A stretch of DNA of 64,000 bases from Flavobacteriales bacterium (GCA_019912395.1 JAIOIH010000010.1:18760-82759), one strand, 5' to 3'; positions 5,708 to 16,888 are shown, counted from the first letter of the stretch. Program-made: numbers and translations. Notes: generated by a model not told the origin, from the letters alone.

Positions 5708-8341
5708 CTATTTCCCGTCCAGATAGTTGCGGCTGAAGAAACCCTCGTAACCATTCGGGTCCTTGGCCACATAAAAGCGCTGGTAATTGTCGCTGCTGAT
5801 GGCGAAAAGGGGAAAGCCCTGATCGTTGATGCCGGCGAGGTCCCCTTTGTTGTTCTTGAAACTATCGTAATAGGACATGGCCAGTTCCTTGGTCTCGAAC
5901 AAGCGGATCAGGATCACTTGGCTGCCAGGGTTCCAGATGCTGGTCTTGACCTCTATGGGCTGGTTGCGGAAGAAGCGCTGGTTGAAATCGCTGATCTGGG
6001 CGGTAATTCCGCTCATGGGTCCTGCGCTGTCCGGTACGATGATGATCACGTAATGTGCTCCCTTGGCTGGTGAATAGGAGGGACCTTCCGATGCTGTATC
6101 CGTGCTGTCCCCTTCTCCGGCACCGACCATCTTGTCGAGGTTGGCGAGCAATGCAATGGCGGCCTTGGCCTCATCGCTACCGGGGTAATTGTCCCGCACC
6201 AGGCCCAAGGCATCGCGGAAGGGCCCCAGCATGTGCAGGCCGCCGATGGCCATGGCCTTCAATAGCCCGTACTTGGCCAGGAGGTGGTTGCGGGGTTCGT
6301 TGGCCACCACGCCATCGCATGTCGCGATCACGCCGCGGTACGATCCCTGCTTGAATTGCTGGTACAGGGCATCATAGGCCTGCGCCTCGGCGATCCGTGT
6401 GGCCTCGTCGGCCTGAAGTTGGTCCGGATTGCGTACCAACCGGGCGAACTCCGACCCCGGCCAGCGTTCCAGGATGATGTCCGAATAGTGCTTCGAGCTG
6501 GCTCCGCCGAAATCCATGAAGTTGCCGGCCTTTTCCTTGGCGAGGTAGATCCGATAGAGCTGGTAGTAGGATTCGGGCGTGTACCGGCAGTCGTCAAAGC
6601 GGTCGTTGAGCACTTGGAAGCTTTCGATGGCGTTGTCCACGTCCTTCAGCTTCTCCTTGTAGATCATTCCGGATAGGTACAGCGCTTGGCAGATCTTCGA
6701 ATTGCTGGTGTCGAGCATGGCCTCGTTCACGGGAATATCCTTCAGGTAGTGCTCGGGGTTCTTCCATTCGGGTTCGCCCTCGGCCAACGTCGGGAGCGTG
6801 CCTGCGCTTCCCTCCTCCTCCTCCTCCTCTTCCTCGGCGATGTCCACCAATGCCGTACCGCTCTTGTCCGCCCGTCGCCAATCATCTTCGTTGGGCCTGC
6901 TGCCCCACTTTTTCCTGAAATCCGCCAATCCCCGGGCCACATGGGTGGGGTTGTAGAAGTACCATGCACCTCCGCTTCCTGCTGTGCCGGGCTTGGGGGC
7001 CAACGGGGTGCTGGCGATGATCTCCCGCGAATCATCAGCGGTCTGCTTGTCCTCCACCTCCTGGCGCTCCCGCTCGCGGATCAGTTGCTTGATCCGCTTT
7101 TCGCGTTCCTCCGGTTCGAGCTTGGCAAAGGCTTGCAGGCTGTCCTCGCGGGCGATCACGTTCAGCTGCACCACCAGGTCCCCGAGCACCTCGGCGCGGG
7201 TGGTCACCTCGTCGAAGCGCGGATGCTCTTCGGAGAGCACCGTGCTGGTGCTGTCGTAATACTGCTGGGCGGCCGGGTATTTCTTGTCATCGAAATAGAG
7301 ATCGGCCAGCTTTAGGAAACTCTTGGCCTTTTGCCGCGTGTCCGTTGTGCTGGAGCGTGTGCTCATCATCAGTTGGCCTATCGCGTCGCTTCGCATGTTC
7401 TCCTTGAGGTCCAGCTCGGCCAAGGCATAGTGGATCATATCGTAGTGGTCCAGGTTCTTCTCGTCACGGAGCATGCGGGCAAGCTTTTGCCGCAGGGTTT
7501 TGCTATCCCCGCGGTCGAAGGCCAGTGCTTGGAAGATCTGTGCATGGAAGCCCATCTCATAGGGCGCGCCCATGCGTGCGACCTTGTTGTACATGGCGAT
7601 GGCCTTGTCGTCCAGCCCCTTCAATTGGTAGAGCTGCGCGAGGATGAACGACCAACGGATCCGGTCCTTCTTCTTGTTCGCGATCTGCAGGGCATGTTCC
7701 AGGTTGATGATGGCATTGTCCACTTTTCCGCGATGGAGGTCCAGGTCGGCCTGCACCGCACTGAGCTCGTCGTGCGGGAAGCGCTTCGGCAGTTCCTTCT
7801 GGCCTTTTATCTCGTCCAGTGTGCTCTGGGCCTTGGCATATTGTTCCAGCTCAATGGCAGTGCGTGCCAACCATAGCTTGGCCTCCATCTGCTTGTCCTG
7901 GCCCTTGTAGCGTCGGCCGATGTAATCGAACGTGCGCAAGGCATCCAGGTAGCCGCGCTTGTAGAAATGGCTTTTCCCGATCACGAACCAGGCATCGTCG
8001 ATCCAGTTGTTCTTCTCCTTTCCCCCGAACTCCATGGAGTTGCGGTCGATCACCGTGGCGCATTTTTCAATGCATATCTCCAGCGCGGGTGTCATGGCCC
8101 GGGCCTCATCCTCGGTCCCGTTGACGAAAATGGGCAGCACCTGGTCGTAGTCGTCCACATGGCCCTTTTGCATGGCCGCCACGGTCTCCTTCAGCTTCTC
8201 GTTGGCATTGAACCAGCCATTGTCCCGGGTCACCAGCCGATGGAAGGTGCGGTTGACGAAGGTGTCCTTGTTCGTGGAACAGGCCACCACCATCACAATG
8301 GCCAGTGCAGGCAGCAGATATCGAGTTGGGGAACGGCGCAT
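5708..8341 (-). CDS. sprE: T9SS/gliding TPR lipoprotein PorW/SprE
   Basis: Lipobox VVAC-STNKDTF, TPRs, WYFYNP...FRKKWGSRPNEDDWRR motif, position before bactofilin-atp; start ATG 8341 or TTG 8365. Confidence 0.85.
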   Translation of the reverse strand: MRRSPTRYLLPALAIVMVVACSTNKDTFVNRTFHRLVTRDNGWFNANEKLKETVAAMQKGHVDDYDQVLPIFVNGTEDEARAMTPALEICIEKCATVIDRNSMEFGGKEKNNWIDDAWFVIGKSHFYKRGYLDALRTFDYIGRRYKGQDKQMEAKLWLARTAIELEQYAKAQSTLDEIKGQKELPKRFPHDELSAVQADLDLHRGKVDNAIINLEHALQIANKKKDRIRWSFILAQLYQLKGLDDKAIAMYNKVARMGAPYEMGFHAQIFQALAFDRGDSKTLRQKLARMLRDEKNLDHYDMIHYALAELDLKENMRSDAIGQLMMSTRSSTTDTRQKAKSFLKLADLYFDDKKYPAAQQYYDSTSTVLSEEHPRFDEVTTRAEVLGDLVVQLNVIAREDSLQAFAKLEPEEREKRIKQLIRERERQEVEDKQTADDSREIIASTPLAPKPGTAGSGGAWYFYNPTHVARGLADFRKKWGSRPNEDDWRRADKSGTALVDIAEEEEEEEEGSAGTLPTLAEGEPEWKNPEHYLKDIPVNEAMLDTSNSKICQALYLSGMIYKEKLKDVDNAIESFQVLNDRFDDCRYTPESYYQLYRIYLAKEKAGNFMDFGGASSKHYSDIILERWPGSEFARLVRNPDQLQADEATRIAEAQAYDALYQQFKQGSYRGVIATCDGVVANEPRNHLLAKYGLLKAMAIGGLHMLGPFRDALGLVRDNYPGSDEAKAAIALLANLDKMVGAGEGDSTDTASEGPSYSPAKGAHYVIIIVPDSAGPMSGITAQISDFNQRFFRNQPIEVKTSIWNPGSQVILIRLFETKELAMSYYDSFKNNKGDLAGINDQGFPLFAISSDNYQRFYVAKDPNGYEGFFSRNYLDGK

Positions 8342-8370
8342 TCGGGCGTGCTGTAAGAACAGCAAGGCGG

Positions 8371-8378
8371 CAAAGTTA
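8371..8378 (-). promoter_or_regulatory. -7 promoter element for sprE
   Basis: TAACTTTG. Confidence 0.7.
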
Positions 8379-8403
8379 TTTCATGCGTTCCGCACCGGGG
8401 GGG

Positions 8404-9396
8404 CTATTTCGCCATATAGCGCCCGGCAGGCCGTAGAAGCACCACCTTCAGGTCCTGTTCCTCGAAGGAGTTGAACCCGACCTCGATGTGCCGGTCCGGC
8501 CAGAATACCCGGACCCTTTTGCGCTTGAGGTCGTAGGCGACGCTGTATAGCGTGCCGAAGCCCCTCAGATACTGTTGATGGTAGAGCGGCGGTTTCAGGA
8601 AGCGCTTCAGCAGTTGGGCGCGGTCCACGTTCTCATCGCGCAGCAGTTCCTCCAAGTAGTCGTTCCGCTCCAGGGTTTGGGTGAAGGCGGCATACTCGTC
8701 CCATTCCACCTGCCCCTGGTGATTGGTGCAGACAGGCTGATGCACGATCTTGGCGGGCCGGTCGGGGTTGAGGTAGGCCACGGCATAGTGCCCGTTCTTG
8801 TCCAGGGCGATCACGTTGTAGCTCATGTGAACGGGAATGCGGCCCACTACGGCCATGGCTTCCTCGGTGGTGGAGCAGGTCTCCAGTATGTAGCGCACCA
8901 CCAACGGGATGCCGAAGCCGATGCCGCTCACCTTCCTGCCACCGAAAGCCAAGGCCACGGCCAATCCGTCGGCGTTCATGCCGTCCAACGAGCCCCATGC
9001 GCTGTCCTGGATGCTGATCACCGGCTTCAACCATTCCGTGAAGCACATTTGCCCGTCGAAAAAGCGGGGGTCGTAGTCGTAATTGCGCACCAGCGTGGGG
9101 TTCCCGCGCACCCAAGCAGCTTGGGAGCAGCCGGCCATGTAGGGAGGCGGGCACCACATGCTGAGAAAGCGGGCCTCCAGGTCGCCGCCACCGGCCAGCT
9201 CGCAGAGGCTGTCATAGGTGGGCAACAGCTCCGGCATGTGGACGGCCAGGGCGTCCCGGGATTCCGCGCGCCCAGGTCGTGCGCCATGGCCCTCGCTCAC
9301 GAACCAGTCCAAGTAGAGTGGCCACACGCGGTGGAAGAAGCGCTGCCAACGCTCGGAGGGCTGCGGCTCGTGGATGAGCTTGAGGTGGATGTACAT
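8404..9396 (-). CDS. C45 family autoproteolytic acyltransferase/amidohydrolase (Ntn fold)
   Basis: G-CS self-cleavage site (YMAG/CSQ), RNYDY, DGMNADGLAV, TNH motifs. Confidence 0.88.
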   Translation of the reverse strand: MYIHLKLIHEPQPSERWQRFFHRVWPLYLDWFVSEGHGARPGRAESRDALAVHMPELLPTYDSLCELAGGGDLEARFLSMWCPPPYMAGCSQAAWVRGNPTLVRNYDYDPRFFDGQMCFTEWLKPVISIQDSAWGSLDGMNADGLAVALAFGGRKVSGIGFGIPLVVRYILETCSTTEEAMAVVGRIPVHMSYNVIALDKNGHYAVAYLNPDRPAKIVHQPVCTNHQGQVEWDEYAAFTQTLERNDYLEELLRDENVDRAQLLKRFLKPPLYHQQYLRGFGTLYSVAYDLKRKRVRVFWPDRHIEVGFNSFEEQDLKVVLLRPAGRYMAK

Positions 9397-9409
9397 GGAA
9401 GGAAGGTTC

Positions 9410-9985
9410 TACCGCAAAGGGCGCGAAGGGCACAAAGAATGCAACATCCAGATGATGCGTTGGCGGTTAAACATCGGGATTACCTGGCACCACGTGTTGA
9501 ATGCCGTGCTTCATTCATTCCACATTGAAGTTGAGGAGTAGACCGAGTGAGCAACCGGTGAGTCGCAGATAGGTCATGACCTGGGACAGATGGATGTCAT
9601 CAAAGGCCGTGACCGCCTTGATCTCTACGATCAGCTTTCGCTCTACTAGTAGGTCAAGCCGATAACCGAGCTCCAGATCGTTGCCATTATATACCACAGG
9701 TAGTTCCAACTGGCCCTGAACATCAACGCCAAGGATCCTAAGTTCATAAAGCAAGGCCTTTTCATAGATGCGTTCGTAAAGGCCCGGACCCAACGTGCTG
9801 TGGACCTCGATCGCTCGACCAATGACAATATGGGACAGCTCGTTAGCGGTCATGGGGTATCAAAATCGTTAAGCCGAAGGAAAAACACCACAAAGCACAT
9901 GAGGACTACCGAGAAGCAAATGGGCTAAGGAGGCGTGCTGAATACGGATCTCCCTTGCTTTGTGCCCTTCGTGTTCATTGCGGTA
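9410..9985. mobile_element. Putative GxxExxY cassette bounded by 28-bp imperfect inverted repeats
   Basis: 9410-9437 versus reverse complement of 9958-9985: 24/28 identical; degenerate third copy at 9886-9913; interior visibly more AT-rich than flanks. Confidence 0.65.
9467..9853 (-). pseudogene. GxxExxY protein (PD-(D/E)XK fold) with in-frame TGA near its C-terminus
   Basis: GLYERIY, RLDLLVE..IVEIK, QVMTYL..LLLNF. TGA at 9515-9517 is followed in frame by family-like MKHGIQHVV to TAA 9467. Confidence 0.8.
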
Positions 9986-10009
9986 TGGAAAACATCGCGG
10001 TTCCTTTCC

Positions 10010-11701
10010 TCACATCATCTTGAACCCTCCGATCTCCAGCGCATATGGTTCAGTGCGCTGATCTCCGGGAGCCTTGCTCTTGTACTGGTCCTTCATGGCC
10101 TTGAGCCATTTTTTGGAGCGCTCCAGCAGCTTGAAATCATCGGACATCATTCGACCGCGCATGACCAGGATGCCAATGTCGGCACCTTCGTAGAGCCAAT
10201 CGCCCACGCGGGTAATGCGGAGGAAGAAGGCCTCGTTCTCGTGCTCCACATAGCGGCGGTGGGTGTCCATGCGCCAGAAATAAATGGTACCGTCCGGCCG
10301 CATGCGCCAGATGCCGCTTCGGGGCGCCGCGGTGACGGTGCGGACGTTGTCCTCGGTGTGCTTGATCACCATTTGGCCCCAGCTATCGATGTTCTCCGCG
10401 CGCGCCCAGCGGCGGTTCAGCGCGTTCACGTTCAGCTCGTAGGGCTGGCCCATCCATTCCATGATGTGGAAGAGGTGGAGCGGCGCATCGCTCATGGCGA
10501 ACACGGCGTGGTTGGTGATGCTGCTGGCACCGGTGATGCGCGGGTTCAGTTCCCCGAGATAGACTTCGCCGTTGTCCTGATCGATCAAAAAGTCCAGTTC
10601 GAAATAGCCCTTGTAGCCCTCCTTGCGCAACTGGTCACCGAAGAGCTGCGCATACTTGCGCGTCTTCCTGCGGATGCTTGGGGTGAAGGCGTCGGCGAAG
10701 ATCTCATTGCCGCACCAGCCGCCCTTGTACGGGGTAAGCTCCTTAAAGCCCACCAGCTCGGTCATCAGCGGGGCCACTACGGTACCGTTGCGCGTAACAC
10801 AGGCTTCCATGGCGGCGCCGCGGCAGTTGATGCGTTTCATCACCTTGCACTCCTTCTCCGCCTCGATCTCCTTCGCGTACTTTTTGTAGTCGGCTTCGGT
10901 CTTGATGAAGAAGGTGGTGTGGCCGCTGTCGCCGAAGGGCGTTTGCACCACAAGGTCGCTCCCGAGCTTGGCCGACACTTTGTTCAGGTGCGCATAGCTC
11001 TTCACCGGACTTAGCACATAGGGCACGCAAGGCACGCCGGCCTTTTCGGCGATGCGGTTGGTGTTCACCTTGTTGTCCATGAAGGTGCGCATCCTGGCAC
11101 TGGGGAAGATCACCTCCAGCCCCAGCTTTTTCGCGAGCTTCTCGGTCTTCTCGTCGAACATCAGGAACATGGCCTTGCCCGCTTTGCCCGATCTTCCCTT
11201 CGCTTTGCGCTTGGCTATGAAGTCCTTCACCTCGCTGTGGGTGAGCAGGTAATTGTTGATGTCCTCTATGCTCTGGAACTCAGCATGCGGCTCCTCGGTC
11301 TGAGGGGTCATCGAATTGGGGTGCAGCCCGTCGAAGCAGTCGATGTAGGTGATGAACTTGAACCCCTTGATCCACTCGTCCGCGCCCAGCAGGTTGAAGT
11401 TGGTGGCGCTGATGAAATAGATGGGCGTCTCGTTGCGGTAGAAGAAGCGCCGGATGTCGCTGACACCCTTGATCACCGCTGGTTTCCGGCTCTTCCTTTT
11501 CGCGGTCTTTTTGATCGCCGCCTTCCTTGCCGAGGGCTTTTTCCTCGGCACGGGACTGGCCGGTTTCCCTTTGGCTGCCGACTTTTTCGGTGCGGCCTTT
11601 TTCGGGGCAGCCTTCTTTTTGGCGGTAGCCGCCTTGCGAACGGTCTTCGCGGGCACCGCTGTGGCCTTTCGCGGTGCGGACTTCTTCAGTTTTTTGCTCA
11701 T
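10010..11701 (-). CDS. ATP-grasp ligase ('biotin carboxylase-like') with Lys/Ala/Pro-rich N-terminal tail
   Basis: VVQTPFGDSGHTTF loop, FELDFLID...LGELNPR metal-binding motif; first ~80 aa are PKKAA-type repeats. Confidence 0.85.
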   Translation of the reverse strand: MSKKLKKSAPRKATAVPAKTVRKAATAKKKAAPKKAAPKKSAAKGKPASPVPRKKPSARKAAIKKTAKRKSRKPAVIKGVSDIRRFFYRNETPIYFISATNFNLLGADEWIKGFKFITYIDCFDGLHPNSMTPQTEEPHAEFQSIEDINNYLLTHSEVKDFIAKRKAKGRSGKAGKAMFLMFDEKTEKLAKKLGLEVIFPSARMRTFMDNKVNTNRIAEKAGVPCVPYVLSPVKSYAHLNKVSAKLGSDLVVQTPFGDSGHTTFFIKTEADYKKYAKEIEAEKECKVMKRINCRGAAMEACVTRNGTVVAPLMTELVGFKELTPYKGGWCGNEIFADAFTPSIRRKTRKYAQLFGDQLRKEGYKGYFELDFLIDQDNGEVYLGELNPRITGASSITNHAVFAMSDAPLHLFHIMEWMGQPYELNVNALNRRWARAENIDSWGQMVIKHTEDNVRTVTAAPRSGIWRMRPDGTIYFWRMDTHRRYVEHENEAFFLRITRVGDWLYEGADIGILVMRGRMMSDDFKLLERSKKWLKAMKDQYKSKAPGDQRTEPYALEIGGFKMM

Positions 11702-14451
11702 GCTTTTTTCTTTTTGTTCGTATTTCCGCTGCCCTGTTCTTGTGCTATCGCAGCGGCCCGCATGCCACCCATGGCCGTCCCGGTGCGTTGCCGGCCGAGC
11801 GCATGGTCGTTGAACACGCGCAGGCCAAGCTCTTCACGGTAGCCGTGGATCTCCTTCACGTCGATGGCAATGAGGAAGTCGAGGATGTCCTTGCTGATCA
11901 CCTGACCGGGCACCAGCACGGGGAAGCCGGGTGGATAGGGAATGACGAAACTGGCGGAGACGAGCTCGCGACCGCCCTGCATCAGCCCCTGGCACCCCTT
12001 GATCTTCACGTACTCGCAGTTCTGTTCGTTATAGGCAAGGAAGTAGGCCTTGCGCAGGTCGCCGCCGGGCACGCCGGGCACCGCGCGGAACGAATCGTGA
12101 AAACGGCTGAAGTCGGGCAGTGGCGGGGTTTCCTTCGTCAGCGAGCGGATGCGGGCAATGTGCAGTTCCTTCTCGGCGTGGTTCAGGGCGTTGTTGCGTG
12201 CCTCCAGCTCGTCGGCGATGGTGAGCAGTACCTTGATCAGGTAGGCCACGGAGCCGCGGGTGGTCCCGATGTTCGTCATGAACAGCACGCTGTTGCGCGA
12301 GGTCTTGTTCACCTGGATGTGGTGCTTGTCCATCAAGTAGCGGTTCTTGAAGGTGTCGCCGTCCACTCCGGTCTTGCCGGTGTACAGGTTGATCTTGGTG
12401 GGGTCCACCACGAATTCGTCATGGGCCCACGCGTCCTCGATGCGGTTCCAGCCCTTCTCCTTGCTGTAGTATTCCTTCAGTCCGGAAGGCCGGTACTTGG
12501 CGGGCACGAGGTTCTCCAGCGTTACGATGTCGAAGTAGCGCCGCAGCTTGGGGTGGTCGTTGATCTTGTGGCGCAGGAGCATGCCTTGCTCGATGGCCTT
12601 TTCCACCAGCTCATAGCCTTCGAACTCCACTTGGCGGCGGCCCACGTCCAAGCTGGCGAGGATCTGGTAGTTGGGGCTGGTGCTGGTGTGCGCCATGTAC
12701 GCCTCGTGGAAGCTGTCCTCGCTCTTGCGCTGGAAGTCCTCGTCCCAGATGTGGATCATGCTGCCCTGCCGCATGGAGGTGAGCGTCTTGTGCGTGCTCT
12801 GGGTGGCATACACGCGGATGCGCACCTTGTCGGGGTCCGGCAAGCGAGGTATCTCACCCTTCTTCAACGAGGCGATGTGCGCGGCGTACTCCTCGCGGTA
12901 CGCATCGCTGTGGTACTTGCGGTGCAGGCGGGCGGCGCTGAACATGGCGGTGCGCTGCTTGAAGATGTAGCTGAAGCCCGCGAAGGCGAACCAGGCCTCG
13001 TCCCAGAGGAAGACCATGTCCGGCTTGATGGCCAGCACCTGCTCCATCACGCGCTGCACGTTGTACACCACGCCGTCGAAGGTGCAGTTGGTGAGCAGCA
13101 GCATTTTCACGTGCTGCAAGCGCCCGGCGGCCTTTAGCACCAGCAATTTCTCACGGATGTGTTCCAACGGCACCGCGCCGTACATGCTGAACTCCGGCAA
13201 GGGGTAGCTGTCCAGGTAAACGGGGTAGGCGCCGGTGAGCGTGAGGCCGTAGTGGTGGCTCTTGTGGCAATCCCGGTCGATGAGCACCATGTCATGCGGT
13301 TCCACCAGCGCCTGCAGCACGATCTTGTTGCTGGTACTGGTGCCGTTGGTGGCGAAATAGGTGAACTGCGATCCGAAGGCGCGCGCCGCACGTTCCTGCG
13401 CCTTCTTCAAGGGGCCGGTGGGTTGCAGCAACGAGTCCAGGCCGCCGCTGGTGCTGGAGGTTTCCGCAAGGAAGAGGTTGCGTCCGTAGAAGTCGCCAAA
13501 ATCCTGTATCCAACGGCTCTTGAACACGGAGTTGCCGCGCGAGATGGGCATGGCGTGAAATACGCCCATCGGCCTGCGGCTGTAGTCCATCAGCGCGGTG
13601 AAGAAGGGCGTATTGTACTTGTCCTGGATGCCGCGCAGAATGGTGAGGTGCAGTTCCTGATGATCTTCCTGGCGATAGAAGATCCGGCGAAAGTTCTGGA
13701 CGGTGGTGTCCTTCAGGTCGCTCACGGGCGTGTCGGTCACGTAGTAGCGGTCCACCTCGGGCCGGAACCAGCGCATCAGCTTGCCCAGGAGCGGACCCAT
13801 GTCGGCCTTGTTGCGGTCGCGGAGGTCCACCTCCTTGATGGCGCGGATGTAGTCCTTCAAAAAGCCCTTGGCGCTGGGCGATGCGAAGGGCATGCCGTAG
13901 CGGATCACGCAGGCCTGGATGTTGGAGTTGAAGAGCAGGGCGATCAGCGCGTCCTGCACCGTGGGCACCACGATGGCATCGTAGGTGAAGGGGTCGGCGG
14001 GATCGCGGACCTCGGCCAGGTTCTCCTTGAGCAGTTGCTCCTCCTCCTCGTTCAGGTCGTCCACGAAGAGCACCTCGAAGTACTTGTTGCGCGGGCGTTC
14101 TGCACCATCATCATCGTGGTCCAGCGCATGCTCGGCATGTTCGCCGGTGTTGAGGCGCACTTGGCCGCTCACCAAGGTGCGCACCAGCTTCAGGGTTCGC
14201 GATTCCAGCGCCGCGTATTCCTTGCGCTCCAGCATGGCCCGCAGACCTCGCACGGCACCGCGCCCCGGGAAGGCCCAGTACTGCTCGATCGTATACAGGT
14301 CCTGCAGCAGCCCGTCCACCTCGCGTACGGCTTCCCGCTTCCCCGTGCGTGCAGCGGCGAGGTCGGAAACTGCGGTTTTTAGTCTGTCCCAAGTGTGGGT
14401 GCGTAGGCGGGTGGCATTGAAATGCTCTTGCGTGGGTTCGGATGTGGGCAT
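11698..14451 (-). CDS. Large PLP-dependent Orn/Lys/Arg-type amino-acid decarboxylase (Rv2531c-like)
   Basis: NGTSTSN, DRDCHKSHH, WDEAW, TQSTHK (PLP Lys), HTSTSP, PYPPGFP; N-terminal wing domain; likely start ATG 14451. Confidence 0.92.
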   Translation of the reverse strand: MPTSEPTQEHFNATRLRTHTWDRLKTAVSDLAAARTGKREAVREVDGLLQDLYTIEQYWAFPGRGAVRGLRAMLERKEYAALESRTLKLVRTLVSGQVRLNTGEHAEHALDHDDDGAERPRNKYFEVLFVDDLNEEEEQLLKENLAEVRDPADPFTYDAIVVPTVQDALIALLFNSNIQACVIRYGMPFASPSAKGFLKDYIRAIKEVDLRDRNKADMGPLLGKLMRWFRPEVDRYYVTDTPVSDLKDTTVQNFRRIFYRQEDHQELHLTILRGIQDKYNTPFFTALMDYSRRPMGVFHAMPISRGNSVFKSRWIQDFGDFYGRNLFLAETSSTSGGLDSLLQPTGPLKKAQERAARAFGSQFTYFATNGTSTSNKIVLQALVEPHDMVLIDRDCHKSHHYGLTLTGAYPVYLDSYPLPEFSMYGAVPLEHIREKLLVLKAAGRLQHVKMLLLTNCTFDGVVYNVQRVMEQVLAIKPDMVFLWDEAWFAFAGFSYIFKQRTAMFSAARLHRKYHSDAYREEYAAHIASLKKGEIPRLPDPDKVRIRVYATQSTHKTLTSMRQGSMIHIWDEDFQRKSEDSFHEAYMAHTSTSPNYQILASLDVGRRQVEFEGYELVEKAIEQGMLLRHKINDHPKLRRYFDIVTLENLVPAKYRPSGLKEYYSKEKGWNRIEDAWAHDEFVVDPTKINLYTGKTGVDGDTFKNRYLMDKHHIQVNKTSRNSVLFMTNIGTTRGSVAYLIKVLLTIADELEARNNALNHAEKELHIARIRSLTKETPPLPDFSRFHDSFRAVPGVPGGDLRKAYFLAYNEQNCEYVKIKGCQGLMQGGRELVSASFVIPYPPGFPVLVPGQVISKDILDFLIAIDVKEIHGYREELGLRVFNDHALGRQRTGTAMGGMRAAAIAQEQGSGNTNKKKKA

Positions 14452-14559
14452 GGGGGTCTCGGAATATAGGTATTCCTGAGCGAAAGGTATTTCACCGCAC
14501 GTTTCGCCCTGCAATCGTCCACAAAGACTACCACAATTGTACACCCGGCCGTGAAAGCG

Positions 14560-15870
14560 CTAAGCCAACGTCTTCTTCCGGCTCTTCGCCATCAGCGCCT
14601 CGATCTCCTCCACCTCCCTTGGGATGTTCTTGAACAGATCGTCCTGACCGTCCTTGGTCACCACGATGTTGTTCTCGATGCGGATGCCGAGGTTTTCCTC
14701 CGGGATGTAGATGCCCGGCTCCACGGTGAAGACCATGCCTTCCGTGATCGGCTCGTGCCACAGGCCCACATCATGCACATCGATGCCGAGGAAGTGGCTG
14801 GTGCCGTGCATGAAGTACTTTTTGTACAGCGGCTTTTCGGGATCCTGCGTCGCCACCTCCTTCTTGTCCAACAGGCCGAGGCCGATCAGTTCCTTTTCCA
14901 TCAGCTCGCCCACCTGCTTGTGGTAATCGCCGAGGAAGACGCCCGGAAGCAAGAGCTTCGTGGCTTCCTTCTGCACGTTCAGCACGGCGTTGTACACGTC
15001 GCGTTGGCGCGGGGAGAATTTGCCGTTCACCGGGATGCTGCGGCTGAGGTCACTGGCGTAGCCGCCGTACTCGCAACCGAAGTCCATCAGGATCACATCG
15101 CCGTCCTTGCAGGTATCGTCGTTGGTGATGTAGTGCAGCACGCAGGCGTTGTAGCCGCTGGCGATGATGGGCGTATAGGCATGCCCGCGCGAGCCGTTGC
15201 GCAGGAACTCATGCGTGATCTCCGCTTCGATGGCGTACTCCTTCACGCCGGGCTTCACGAATTGCAACACGCGCTGGAAGGCCTTGGCGGTGATGTTCAC
15301 CGCGTTCTGGATCTGCGCGATCTCCTCGGCCGTCTTCCGGGAGCGGATGCGGTGCATGATCGGTGCGCTGCGCTTCACTTCGTACAAGGGATACTTGGCG
15401 CGTAGTTCCTTGTTCTTGCGCTCCTCGCGGGTTTCCACTTCATTGCCTTGGCGCAGGTGCTCGTTGCTGTTGAGGTAGATGCTTTTCGCCTGCGGAAGCA
15501 AGCGCTGCAAGGTGGCCTCGTAGCTGCTGGTCCACAGCACGGTGGCGATGCCGCTCTGCGCGGTGGCCTGCTGCTGCGTCAGCTTCGCACCTTCCCAAAT
15601 GGCGATGCTGGGGCTGGTCTCGCGGACGAAGAGGATCTCGCGGTCCTTCGGATCGAACGCATCCGGAAAGAGCAGCAGCACGGTCTCCTCCTGGTCGATG
15701 CCGCTGAGGTGGAAGATGTCCGCCGCCTGGTGGAAGGGCATGGTGCCGTCCGCGCTGGTGGGCATGATGTCGTTGCTGTGGAAGACGGCGAGACCACCCT
15801 TTTCCATGGCCTGGCGGAAGCGGCTACGGTGTTCACGATAGGTGGCGGCGGAGAGGGGTGTGTAGCGCAT
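14560..15870 (-). CDS. pepP: Xaa-Pro aminopeptidase (M24B)
   Basis: DFGCEYGGYASD, HGTSHFLGIDVHD, TVEPGIY, GIRIE. Confidence 0.93.
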   Translation of the reverse strand: MRYTPLSAATYREHRSRFRQAMEKGGLAVFHSNDIMPTSADGTMPFHQAADIFHLSGIDQEETVLLLFPDAFDPKDREILFVRETSPSIAIWEGAKLTQQQATAQSGIATVLWTSSYEATLQRLLPQAKSIYLNSNEHLRQGNEVETREERKNKELRAKYPLYEVKRSAPIMHRIRSRKTAEEIAQIQNAVNITAKAFQRVLQFVKPGVKEYAIEAEITHEFLRNGSRGHAYTPIIASGYNACVLHYITNDDTCKDGDVILMDFGCEYGGYASDLSRSIPVNGKFSPRQRDVYNAVLNVQKEATKLLLPGVFLGDYHKQVGELMEKELIGLGLLDKKEVATQDPEKPLYKKYFMHGTSHFLGIDVHDVGLWHEPITEGMVFTVEPGIYIPEENLGIRIENNIVVTKDGQDDLFKNIPREVEEIEALMAKSRKKTLA

Positions 15871-16141
15871 GGTCGTTCGGGGTAGGAGGTGCGAAGGTAG
15901 AAAGGCGCGGATGGGATGTTCGGAAAAGAGGCAAGTGAACGCCGCATTCCAAACCCTAGGTTACCCGCTTTTGAACTTTAGGTGAAAAGCGCCTTCCAAG
16001 CAATCCCGCTCAGGCACGCAACTTCCTCATCACAAGGAACTTGCCGAAAACTATACATGTTCATCGCGATATGGATAGAAAAAGGCTGTGTTCTATACAT
16101 GTCGAGCCAGATGACCGGAAGCGTCTTCGCAACGTGCTACC

Positions 16142-16888
16142 TCACCCCTTGAACCGCACCATCACCGTGTTCCCCTTCTCCTCGCGGCGGGTCTCCACTT
16201 TGTCCTTCAATGCGCTGATCAGCGAGGACAATGAGCCATGTCCATAGCTGCGCGGGTCGAAGCTGGGGTCCAATCGCCGCAGCGCTTGGCCGATCAGGCT
16301 CAATGAAACCTCATCCTCTTCTCCCTTGGCGATGTCAAAGGCCTTGCGGAGCTTGCGCATCAAGGAGGTGTTGGCCGATAATGCCGTGGTGGTTTTCTTC
16401 TTCGCTGACTTGGATCCGGAGCTCGTGCTGCCCTTCGGTTCGTCATGGATGTCCAAGTTCTCCACGTAGATGAAGCGCTCGCAGGCCTGCACGAACGCAT
16501 CGGGGGTCTTCTTTTCGCCCACGCCCATTACAAAGAGGCCGGCTTCGCGAAGCCGGGTGGCCAAGCGGGTGTAGTCGCTGTCACTGCTCACGATGCAGAA
16601 GGCGTCCACCATGCCGCCGTGGAGAATGTCCATGGCATCGATGATGAGCGCGCTGTCCGTGCTGTTCTTGCCCTTCGTGTAGGCGAATTGCTGCACGGGC
16701 TGGATGGCGTTGGCGTTCAAGAGGTCCTTCCAGCCGCTCATGCCGGTGGTGGTCCAATCGCCATAGATGCGCCGGATGGTGATGGTGCCCTTTTTGGAGA
16801 CTTCCTCCAGGATGGGTGCCAAGCGGCGCGGGGCCGCGTTATCGCCGTCTATCAGGAGGGCGATGGTGGTGTCGTTGATCTTTTTCAC
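16142..16888 (-). CDS. NYN (LabA/DUF88) nuclease with C-terminal OST-HTH/LOTUS domain
   Basis: LIDGDN, RIYGDW, GKNSTDSALIIDAMD, SSDSDY, FDPRSYG. Confidence 0.92.
   Translation of the reverse strand: MKKINDTTIALLIDGDNAAPRRLAPILEEVSKKGTITIRRIYGDWTTTGMSGWKDLLNANAIQPVQQFAYTKGKNSTDSALIIDAMDILHGGMVDAFCIVSSDSDYTRLATRLREAGLFVMGVGEKKTPDAFVQACERFIYVENLDIHDEPKGSTSSGSKSAKKKTTTALSANTSLMRKLRKAFDIAKGEEDEVSLSLIGQALRRLDPSFDPRSYGHGSLSSLISALKDKVETRREEKGNTVMVRFKG

Follow-up and report, generated by a model that had tools for sequence, protein, structure and literature searches.

Three neighbouring genes in a stretch of 64,000 nucleotides from a Flavobacteriales bacterium (GCA_019912395.1 JAIOIH010000010.1:18760-82759; hereafter the window) encode a long pyridoxal phosphate (PLP)-dependent decarboxylase, an ATP-grasp enzyme and a hydrolase of the C45 family of N-terminal nucleophile (Ntn) enzymes. 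Our analysis suggests that these genes form a module that handles gamma-aminobutyric acid (GABA). GABA would be made from glutamate and the ATP-grasp enzyme would form a gamma-aminobutyryl conjugate, from which the C45 hydrolase, perhaps together with a CN-hydrolase, would recover GABA for a gabT-type aminotransferase and an aldehyde dehydrogenase. The conjugate would thus serve as a buffer for surplus GABA. We estimate the probability of this reading at roughly 0.55.

The decarboxylase and the ATP-grasp enzyme

The decarboxylase has the fold of the Orn/Lys/Arg decarboxylases (Pfam OKR_DC_1, 8.9e-79). When the PDB was searched, it aligned in one stretch with Rv2531c of Mycobacterium tuberculosis (9n0o/9n0n, E 8.1e-239, residues 14-891 to 9-893). 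This alignment covers the four-domain architecture with the extra N-terminal domain that precedes the receiver-like domain, and the major domain recognised by Pfam begins at residue 312 of the GTG-started frame. The next PDB matches were classical arginine/lysine decarboxylases, which reached only 1e-59 or weaker over ~230 residues. In addition, the NCBI curated Lys/Arg/Orn decarboxylase models scored 160-210 bits against cut-offs of 794-1310.

According to its description, Rv2531c decarboxylates L-glutamate to GABA, is inactive on Lys, Orn and Arg, feeds the GABA shunt, and recognises glutamate through residues H405, K406, R576, T606, R718 and N731 (PMC13506015, 2026). In a hand count on the 9n0o alignment, the counterparts of five of these six (H405, K406, R576, T606 and N731) were identical in the window enzyme, whereas R718 was replaced by Lys. 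The PLP lysine was likewise conserved, and the motifs CHKSHH, STHK and HTSTSPN, the R of MRQ and the N of VNKT were identical. The two proteins are also similar in length (917 versus 947 aa; PDB 9N0N/9N0O/9N0P; PMC13506015, PMC12329521). Because the match to Rv2531c extends over the full length and the recognition residues are kept, the 917-aa protein is strongly predicted to be a long-form L-glutamate decarboxylase of the Rv2531c type that makes GABA. A difference lies in the gene context, as the Rv2531c gene stands alone in M. tuberculosis, whereas the window decarboxylase gene overlaps that of the ATP-grasp enzyme. The accessible text of the Rv2531c paper (PMC13506015) mentions no ATP-grasp enzyme, biotin carboxylase, C45 protein or gene neighbours and has the word 'operon' only in its references; 'Rv1722' was not among the terms searched there.

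The ATP-grasp enzyme belongs to the family NF005096 / PRK06524, which carries the name 'biotin carboxylase'; it reaches 757.9 bits, above the cut-off of 684, and covers positions 4-479 of the 493 in the profile. PDB searches with the sequence and with the family profile returned only weakly matching biotin-carboxylase domains (best E 7.6e-12, with the profile), which matched the generic ATP-grasp core at profile positions 116-329, and the last ~160 residues found no PDB match. The ELNPR motif is present in the protein, and the segment ELNPRITGAS (family consensus ELNPRIsGAs) aligns to EVNPRIQVEH of the carboxylases, with Ala in place of Glu. In biotin carboxylase, the Glu of QVEH is the catalytic base. 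The accC models gave 26-35 bits against cut-offs near 600-770 (for instance, 31.3 versus 626.5 for TIGR00514), and no gene for a biotin carrier or a carboxyltransferase accompanied the ATP-grasp gene at any locus examined. What the enzyme shares with AccC is the ATP-grasp core with its ELNPR Mg/ATP motif, while the QVEH Glu and the partner genes are lacking and the C-terminal domain is unrelated by sequence. The exchange of this Glu for Ala in the profile alignment bears out the original prediction, made from the sequence alone, that the protein does not act as a biotin carboxylase.

The family is large: a library clustered at 50% contains 2382 of its representatives when matches are counted to E<=1e-3, and 291 when they are counted to E<=1e-30. 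Across Bacteroidota orders the enzyme is conserved at 70-90% identity. A cluster look-up with a homologue (P0005) returned only clusters named 'biotin carboxylase' or ATP-grasp. Mycobacterial proteins are found in the family as well: P0396 from M. barrassiae and P0490 scored 737.6 and 744.8 bits on NF005096, both above the cut-off, and P0396 shares 43% identity with the window protein across ~530 residues.

A characterised enzyme for comparison is Rv1722 (GabtS), an ATP-grasp enzyme of M. tuberculosis earlier annotated as a (biotin) carboxylase. As described in a preprint, the purified enzyme converts GABA, trehalose and ATP into 6'-GABA-trehalose, a carboxylate-hydroxyl ligation that gives an ester; the compound is proposed to buffer surplus GABA, and its breakdown route is called unknown (bioRxiv 10.64898/2026.04.15.718621). 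Compared by description, Rv1722 and the window enzyme are alike in their former annotation and in a supply of GABA, predicted for the window enzyme, from the cell's own decarboxylase. In all genomes examined, GABA-forming genes accompany that of the window ATP-grasp enzyme, and the mycobacterial proteins mentioned above fall in the same NCBIfam equivalog (NF005096) as the window protein. By analogy, the window ATP-grasp enzyme would most likely attach GABA to an acceptor, here called X. There are also differences. The window ligase travels with C45, CN-hydrolase and a VOC protein, none of which was found by term searches of the accessible preprint text, and Rv1722 makes GABA-trehalose, whereas this genome shows no trehalose synthesis genes. 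Rv2531c was not mentioned in the preprint text covered by the term search either.

Conservation and co-inheritance of the module

The original prediction had made its case depend on the genes being conserved neighbours elsewhere, and this is what we observed: the three genes form a conserved module whose members are inherited together. The decarboxylase gene lies upstream of the ATP-grasp gene in the same locus in nine of nine loci from other taxa (Flavobacteriales, Owenweeksia, Algoriphagus, Ginsengibacter, Bacteroidia, Saprospiraceae, Balneolaceae and Saprospirales) and in four of four further phylum genomes, and the two genes are co-inherited in 37/37 genomes of the genus and in 5/5 of the phylum sample. 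This arrangement is far from chance. ATP-grasp and C45 genes are adjacent in 11 of the 12 genus loci and in 7 of the 9 other-taxon loci; L019 has no C45 gene and in L021 the contig ends. In two Flavobacteriales loci, a restriction-modification island was seen between the decarboxylase and ATP-grasp genes (L013, 3400-7900; L015, 3700-8000), with an Eco47II-type endonuclease and a C5 cytosine methyltransferase in L015 and a methyltransferase fragment in L013.

In relatives, the decarboxylase gene shares its operon with gabT-like and succinate-semialdehyde dehydrogenase (SSADH)-like genes. A longer operon was found in L016, L018, L019, L020 and L021, in which genes for a GABA-type aminotransferase, a CN-hydrolase, the long decarboxylase and the ATP-grasp enzyme are followed, where the contig continues, by C45, which L019 lacks, and an SSADH-like aldehyde dehydrogenase. 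A VOC protein of ~133 aa is encoded between CN-hydrolase and decarboxylase in L016 and L019, and the L016 operon ends with an amino-acid permease. The extended order of gabT, CN-hydrolase, VOC, decarboxylase, ATP-grasp, (C45) and aldehyde dehydrogenase occurs in loci of Cytophagales, Chitinophagales, Saprospiraceae and Balneolaceae, and permeases are present in the module operons of Chondrinema and Algoriphagus. In the genome of the window, gabT, CN-hydrolase and VOC lie on another contig (C18:30648-33604, with VOC at C18:33026-33604, which is L022 7027-7605). An aldehyde dehydrogenase gene, orthologous to the one behind C45 in L013, is located 25 kb beyond this gabT cluster.

Of the 61 genomes in the genus sample, the same 37 had both the decarboxylase and the ATP-grasp enzyme, and the other 24 had neither. 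Orthologues of the further components were found in most of the 37 (C45 in 35, CN-hydrolase in 34, gabT in 34 and VOC in 33) and each in 0/24 elsewhere, while a VOC paralogue of ~45% identity is present in genomes with and without the module. C45 is missed in G059 and G062, where the ligase stands at a contig end or the module is decaying, and CN-hydrolase and gabT are missed in G006, G019 and G023, with completeness of 73%, 94% and 79%. The genes are often unlinked: decarboxylase and ligase are on different contigs in G003, G005 and G007 and 18 kb apart in G009, and in the complete genomes G070 and G072 the CN-hydrolase gene lies at a distance of 180-520 kb. Since kin are not independent, we regard this co-occurrence in the genus as a pattern and not as a statistic. 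We also searched an even sample of 301 phylum genomes, at least 90% complete. NF005096 scored above its cut-off in five of them, and the long decarboxylase was found in the same five and in 0/296 elsewhere; gabT, CN-hydrolase, VOC, decarboxylase and ATP-grasp are contiguous in the four others of these five. The module is rare, patchy and inherited as a unit.

A few genomes of the genus deserve separate mention. In the 94% complete G019 (L003), decarboxylase, ATP-grasp, GxxExxY and C45 genes were present and orthologues of gabT, CN-hydrolase and VOC were not found; if this pattern is true, GABA or its conjugate would be the end product there. The module seems to be decaying in G062 (C2:9-7232), where the decarboxylase gene contains stop codons and the CN-hydrolase gene is in two pieces, and in G001 (C5, C13), where the decarboxylase gene is in two pieces and a C45 copy on another contig has two TGA codons.

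The ligase was also present in 33 plasmid records, six of which were opened. The long decarboxylase stands beside the ligase on plasmids of Roseobacter ponti and Chondrinema litorale and on two of Rhizobium leguminosarum; the Roseobacter and Chondrinema plasmids also have CN-hydrolase, C45 and gabT beside or near them, with no VOC gene annotated. The plasmids of Shinella zoogloeoides and Roseateles, which we counted as one lineage because their operons are nearly the same, carry the trio of CN-hydrolase, ATP-grasp and C45 with no long decarboxylase within 8 kb. There the trio lies among genes annotated as an agmatinase-family enzyme, 5-guanidino-2-oxopentanoate decarboxylase, aldehyde dehydrogenase, D-amino-acid dehydrogenase and racemase, which we take to be steps of the route from arginine via 2-ketoarginine and 4-guanidinobutyrate to GABA. 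If this arginine route holds, the same trio accompanies two different sources of GABA and would therefore act on GABA, which would be the common denominator of the trio loci.

Proposed conjugation of GABA and the alternatives

In the scheme that we favour, the 917-aa enzyme would decarboxylate L-glutamate to GABA in the cytoplasm, the step for which the comparison with Rv2531c argues strongly. The ATP-grasp enzyme would activate the GABA carboxylate with ATP, presumably as an acyl-phosphate, as suggested by the co-inheritance and by the Rv1722 reaction, and transfer the gamma-aminobutyryl group to the acceptor X, at one of its hydroxyls or amines. The resulting conjugate would hold surplus GABA inside the cell. 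Judging from the chemistry of its family only, the C45 Cys-Ntn hydrolase may then free GABA or transfer the gamma-aminobutyryl group, and the freed GABA would be converted to succinate by the gabT aminotransferase and the aldehyde dehydrogenase. A known parallel is offered by glutathionylspermidine synthetase/amidase and similar pairs, in which the product of an ATP-dependent ligase is cleaved again by a partner cysteine hydrolase, so that the pool of conjugate is reversible. The likeness lies in this pairing. The hydrolase has a CHAP fold there and a C45 Ntn fold here, the substrates differ, and here the two activities would reside in separate proteins, with the hydrolase missing in some lineages.

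The assignment of the window C45 protein itself is clear (Pfam AAT 1.6e-32, 113 bits; NF040521 166 bits against a cut-off of 85). Cys90, the predicted site of self-cleavage, is invariant in 11 of 11 C45 orthologues and preceded by Gly or Ala, and R104-N105-Y106-D107 are invariant in the same 11. No sequence match was found in the PDB and no signal peptide was seen by eye. Characterised C45 enzymes are isopenicillin-N acyltransferase and Drosophila Tan, a beta-alanyl-amine hydrolase, both of which cleave omega-linked aminoacyl amides. Action on omega-linked aminoacyl groups would suit the gamma-aminobutyryl group of the proposed substrate, and by this analogy the window C45 probably hydrolyses the GABA conjugate. 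Cleavage of an ester, should the conjugate resemble GABA-trehalose in this respect, would be a chemistry new to the C45 family.

The original prediction had proposed a module that makes an amine, ligates it and removes it again. This logic remains the best reading, with GABA rather than a polyamine as the product amine; the expectation of a polyamine-type amine from a Lys/Arg/Orn-type decarboxylase does not fit a full-length relative that is a glutamate decarboxylase inactive on Lys, Orn and Arg. The idea that the amine is joined to a foreign carboxylate is not supported either: Rv1722, the one characterised enzyme of this kind found in the literature, activates the carboxylate of GABA itself and a sugar hydroxyl accepts it (10.64898/2026.04.15.718621). 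Finally, the statement that no product has been described for the combination no longer holds for the ligase type, for which the same text describes GABA-trehalose, but is still valid where the C45 partner and this phylum are concerned.

The two anchor enzymes were each described in 2026 (Rv2531c, PMC13506015; Rv1722, 10.64898/2026.04.15.718621), so the module is not of a new kind. In the literature, with preprint supplements outside the search, we found no paper on the union of Rv2531c-type and Rv1722-type enzymes in one transferable module. Nor did we find one on C45, CN-hydrolase and VOC as its partners, on the module in bacteria without trehalose synthesis, on the PRK06524 family or an amidoligase role of it, or on the combination of ATP-grasp, decarboxylase and C45. 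GABA-trehalose was found only in the one preprint (10.64898/2026.04.15.718621); conjugation of GABA to bile acids by gut bacteria has been described. By the genomic pattern, the 'cloaked' glutamate decarboxylase and the GABA-trehalose synthetase would belong together as the halves of a single module that has been transferred widely. The pattern also offers C45, CN-hydrolase and VOC as candidates for the breakdown route of the conjugate, which the preprint leaves open (10.64898/2026.04.15.718621), and it predicts that bacteria without trehalose make other, so far unsought GABA conjugates. Moreover, thousands of proteins named 'biotin carboxylase' or 'ornithine decarboxylase' would have their annotation corrected.

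Several observations weigh against conjugation as a GABA buffer. A profile search found no C45 in G138 and G155 (both 100% complete) and in G375, all of which have the rest of the operon; C45 is therefore dispensable and not an obligatory partner, and the CN-hydrolase may be the more constant hydrolase. CN-hydrolase and VOC track the module as closely as C45, yet have no role in the scheme. The VOC protein of ~133 aa is a member of the VOC/glyoxalase superfamily (PF00903 in 6/7 members at E<=1, best 4.3e-6; PDB 2r6u, 3.8e-7). An ATP-spending ligase inside catabolic-looking operons is odd. In addition, no match to OtsA, OtsB, TreS or TreY was found in this 99% complete genome in a search that did not extend to TreT and trehalose uptake, and among five other module genomes OtsA was found in one and TreS (over its cut-off) and TreY in none. 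Since no trehalose synthesis genes were found, trehalose is an unlikely general acceptor here. As a separate observation, not a single first-look candidate came up with the models for TreS and TreY in the genome of the window (G000), although alpha-amylase-family proteins match in 13 of 14 control genomes; G000 may lack this glycoside hydrolase family altogether.

In a first alternative, CN-hydrolase, ATP-grasp and C45 would store no GABA and would instead feed an amide related to GABA or glutamate, either imported or arising as a side product, into the GABA shunt. Such an amide could be N-carbamoyl-GABA, a side product of a transaminase, or a peptide of the gamma-aminobutyryl or gamma-glutamyl type. 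The trio occurs in otherwise catabolic-looking operons with gabT and aldehyde dehydrogenase, peptide-type ATP-binding cassette transporters or amino-acid permeases adjoin it on some plasmids and loci, and two hydrolases per ligase fit breakdown better than storage. The nearest relatives of the CN-hydrolase, weak and unspecific, point the same way (PH0642, N-carbamoylputrescine amidohydrolase, Nit2 and aliphatic amidases). However, an ATP-spending ligase has no obvious place in hydrolytic breakdown, and the strict coupling is to a GABA-producing decarboxylase and not to a transporter, none of which adjoins the trio in the window. Moreover, the only published reaction of an enzyme so described, that of Rv1722, is synthetic (10.64898/2026.04.15.718621). 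We consider such salvage unlikely, if worth keeping in mind.

A second alternative concerns the acceptor. In this phylum, the ligase may make no GABA-trehalose and place GABA reversibly on something else. A possible target is a hydroxyl on a large polyanion, for example RNA, DNA, polyphosphate or a polymer of the envelope, to which the conserved polybasic tail would tether the ATP-grasp enzyme and from which C45 and CN-hydrolase would remove GABA. Such a reversible 'GABA-ylation' would be loosely comparable to D-alanylation of teichoic acids. The Lys/Ala-rich polybasic N-terminal tail is present in 246 of the 428 family members examined, while a few have a hydrophobic N-terminal helix in its place. 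Tails of this kind occur in only 8 of 3134 crude open reading frames (ORFs) of G000, namely at the N-terminus of the ATP-grasp enzyme, at the C-terminus of the VOC protein beside gabT, and in a DksA-type zinc-finger protein, a histone-H1-like HC2 protein, ribosomal L21, topoisomerase I, HemD and a DUF5606 protein. The idea is based on a relative that esterifies a sugar hydroxyl, on a tail that is family-wide, on the association with nucleic acids of four of these six other tailed proteins (DksA-like, H1-like, L21 and topoisomerase I), and on the lack of trehalose synthesis genes among those searched. We regard it as very improbable.

Two further readings appear very improbable, one no more so than the other. 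In the first, the decarboxylase would make putrescine, cadaverine or agmatine, the ATP-grasp enzyme would ligate this amine to a carboxylate, by analogy with conjugates of the glutathionylspermidine type, and C45 would be the amidase. ATP-grasp ligases usually join amines to carboxylates, and both Pfam and NCBIfam place the catalytic domain among Orn/Lys/Arg decarboxylases. Against this stand the low scores of the curated models for these enzymes, the operon partners of gabT and SSADH type, and the plasmids on which ligase and C45 sit with annotated arginine-breakdown genes of a route that presumably ends in GABA. Rv2531c, the full-length relative of known structure, is also inactive on Lys, Orn and Arg (PMC13506015), and its glutamate-recognising Arg is conserved in the window enzyme.

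In the second, C45, an Ntn hydrolase with an N-terminal Cys as in class-II glutamine amidotransferases, would supply ammonia or an acyl group to the ATP-grasp enzyme, so that the pair formed one carboxylate-amidating synthetase. An Ntn glutaminase plus a synthetase is a known design, and the frequent adjacency of the two genes and the conserved N-terminal nucleophile Cys would agree with it. However, the ligase is kept in the three genomes in which C45 was not found, a cassette splits the two genes in the window without sign of loss, and the Pfam match is to an acyltransferase/hydrolase family and not to a glutaminase.

Least probable of all is a true carboxylase that uses bicarbonate and ATP and acts either on an amine, as PurK does, or on biotin bound to a distant carrier, since in favour of it stand the NCBIfam name and the best PDB matches, and against it the confinement of these matches to the generic core, the family-wide Ala at the Glu of NPRIQVEH, the accC scores and the absence of carrier and carboxyltransferase genes from the loci examined.

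The locus and its neighbours

Positions of the genes and of smaller features in the window are given in the table. The ORF coordinates and family matches agree with the original description of three minus-strand genes with an ATGA overlap and an inserted GxxExxY cassette.

Features of the module locus, with positions counted from the first nucleotide of the window
Feature	Position	Strand	Details
C45 Ntn-hydrolase	8404-9396	minus	330 aa ORF; Pfam AAT, NF040521
GxxExxY/PDDEXK_3 ORF	9515-9853	minus	TIGR04256 3.3e-38
Cassette with 40-nt inverted arms	9410-9985	minus	arms 9410-9449 and 9946-9985
ATP-grasp enzyme, putative GABA ligase	10010-11701	minus	563 aa from ATG; NF005096 / PRK06524
Lys/Ala-rich polybasic N-terminal tail of ATP-grasp	11477-11701	minus	residues 1-75, from translation
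ATGA overlap, decarboxylase stop / ATP-grasp start	11698-11701	minus	ORF coordinates
Long-form PLP decarboxylase, predicted L-glutamate decarboxylase	11698-14451	minus	917 aa from ATG 14451

The open frame of the decarboxylase extends to a GTG at 14544, which would give 948 aa; the start at the ATG agrees with the 917-aa ORF in the closest relative, L014. Within the ATGA, the decarboxylase stop occupies 11698-11700 and the ATP-grasp start 11701-11699, which suggests translational coupling of the two genes. Promoter and terminator scans covered 8200-16200. The first, which does not cover Bacteroidota promoters, gave 0 promoter-like sites, and the second gave 7 terminator-like sites, all on the plus strand, against 7.6 expected, and is uninformative. 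An RNA-labelled run (X19) yielded, besides fragments of relatives, one contig of 358 nt that is identical to 11792-12149 within the decarboxylase gene. DNA carry-over is possible there, and these contigs are no evidence of transcription or of an operon.

The GxxExxY cassette, whose arms are 78% complementary, is an insertion outside the pathway. The same gene stands between ATP-grasp and C45 in the relatives L003 and L014 and behind C45 in L006 and L007, and in cassette-free relatives only 10-130 bp separate ATP-grasp from C45.

The nearest neighbours of the three genes encode PorW/SprE, an Xaa-Pro aminopeptidase, a NYN protein, YceI, pirin and bactofilin. As the original prediction had noted, there is no biotin carrier, carboxyltransferase or antiporter among these nearest neighbours, the rest of the 64-kb window not having been scanned for them. 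An acid-resistance role of the decarboxylase was considered; no antiporter adjoins it here, while the operons of Chondrinema and Algoriphagus do include permeases. The PorW/SprE type IX secretion lipoprotein (885 aa, 5708-8365; NF052312, 633 bits) is encoded on the same strand 38 bp downstream of C45, and this synteny of PorW/SprE and C45 is common only to the window and its closest relative, L014.

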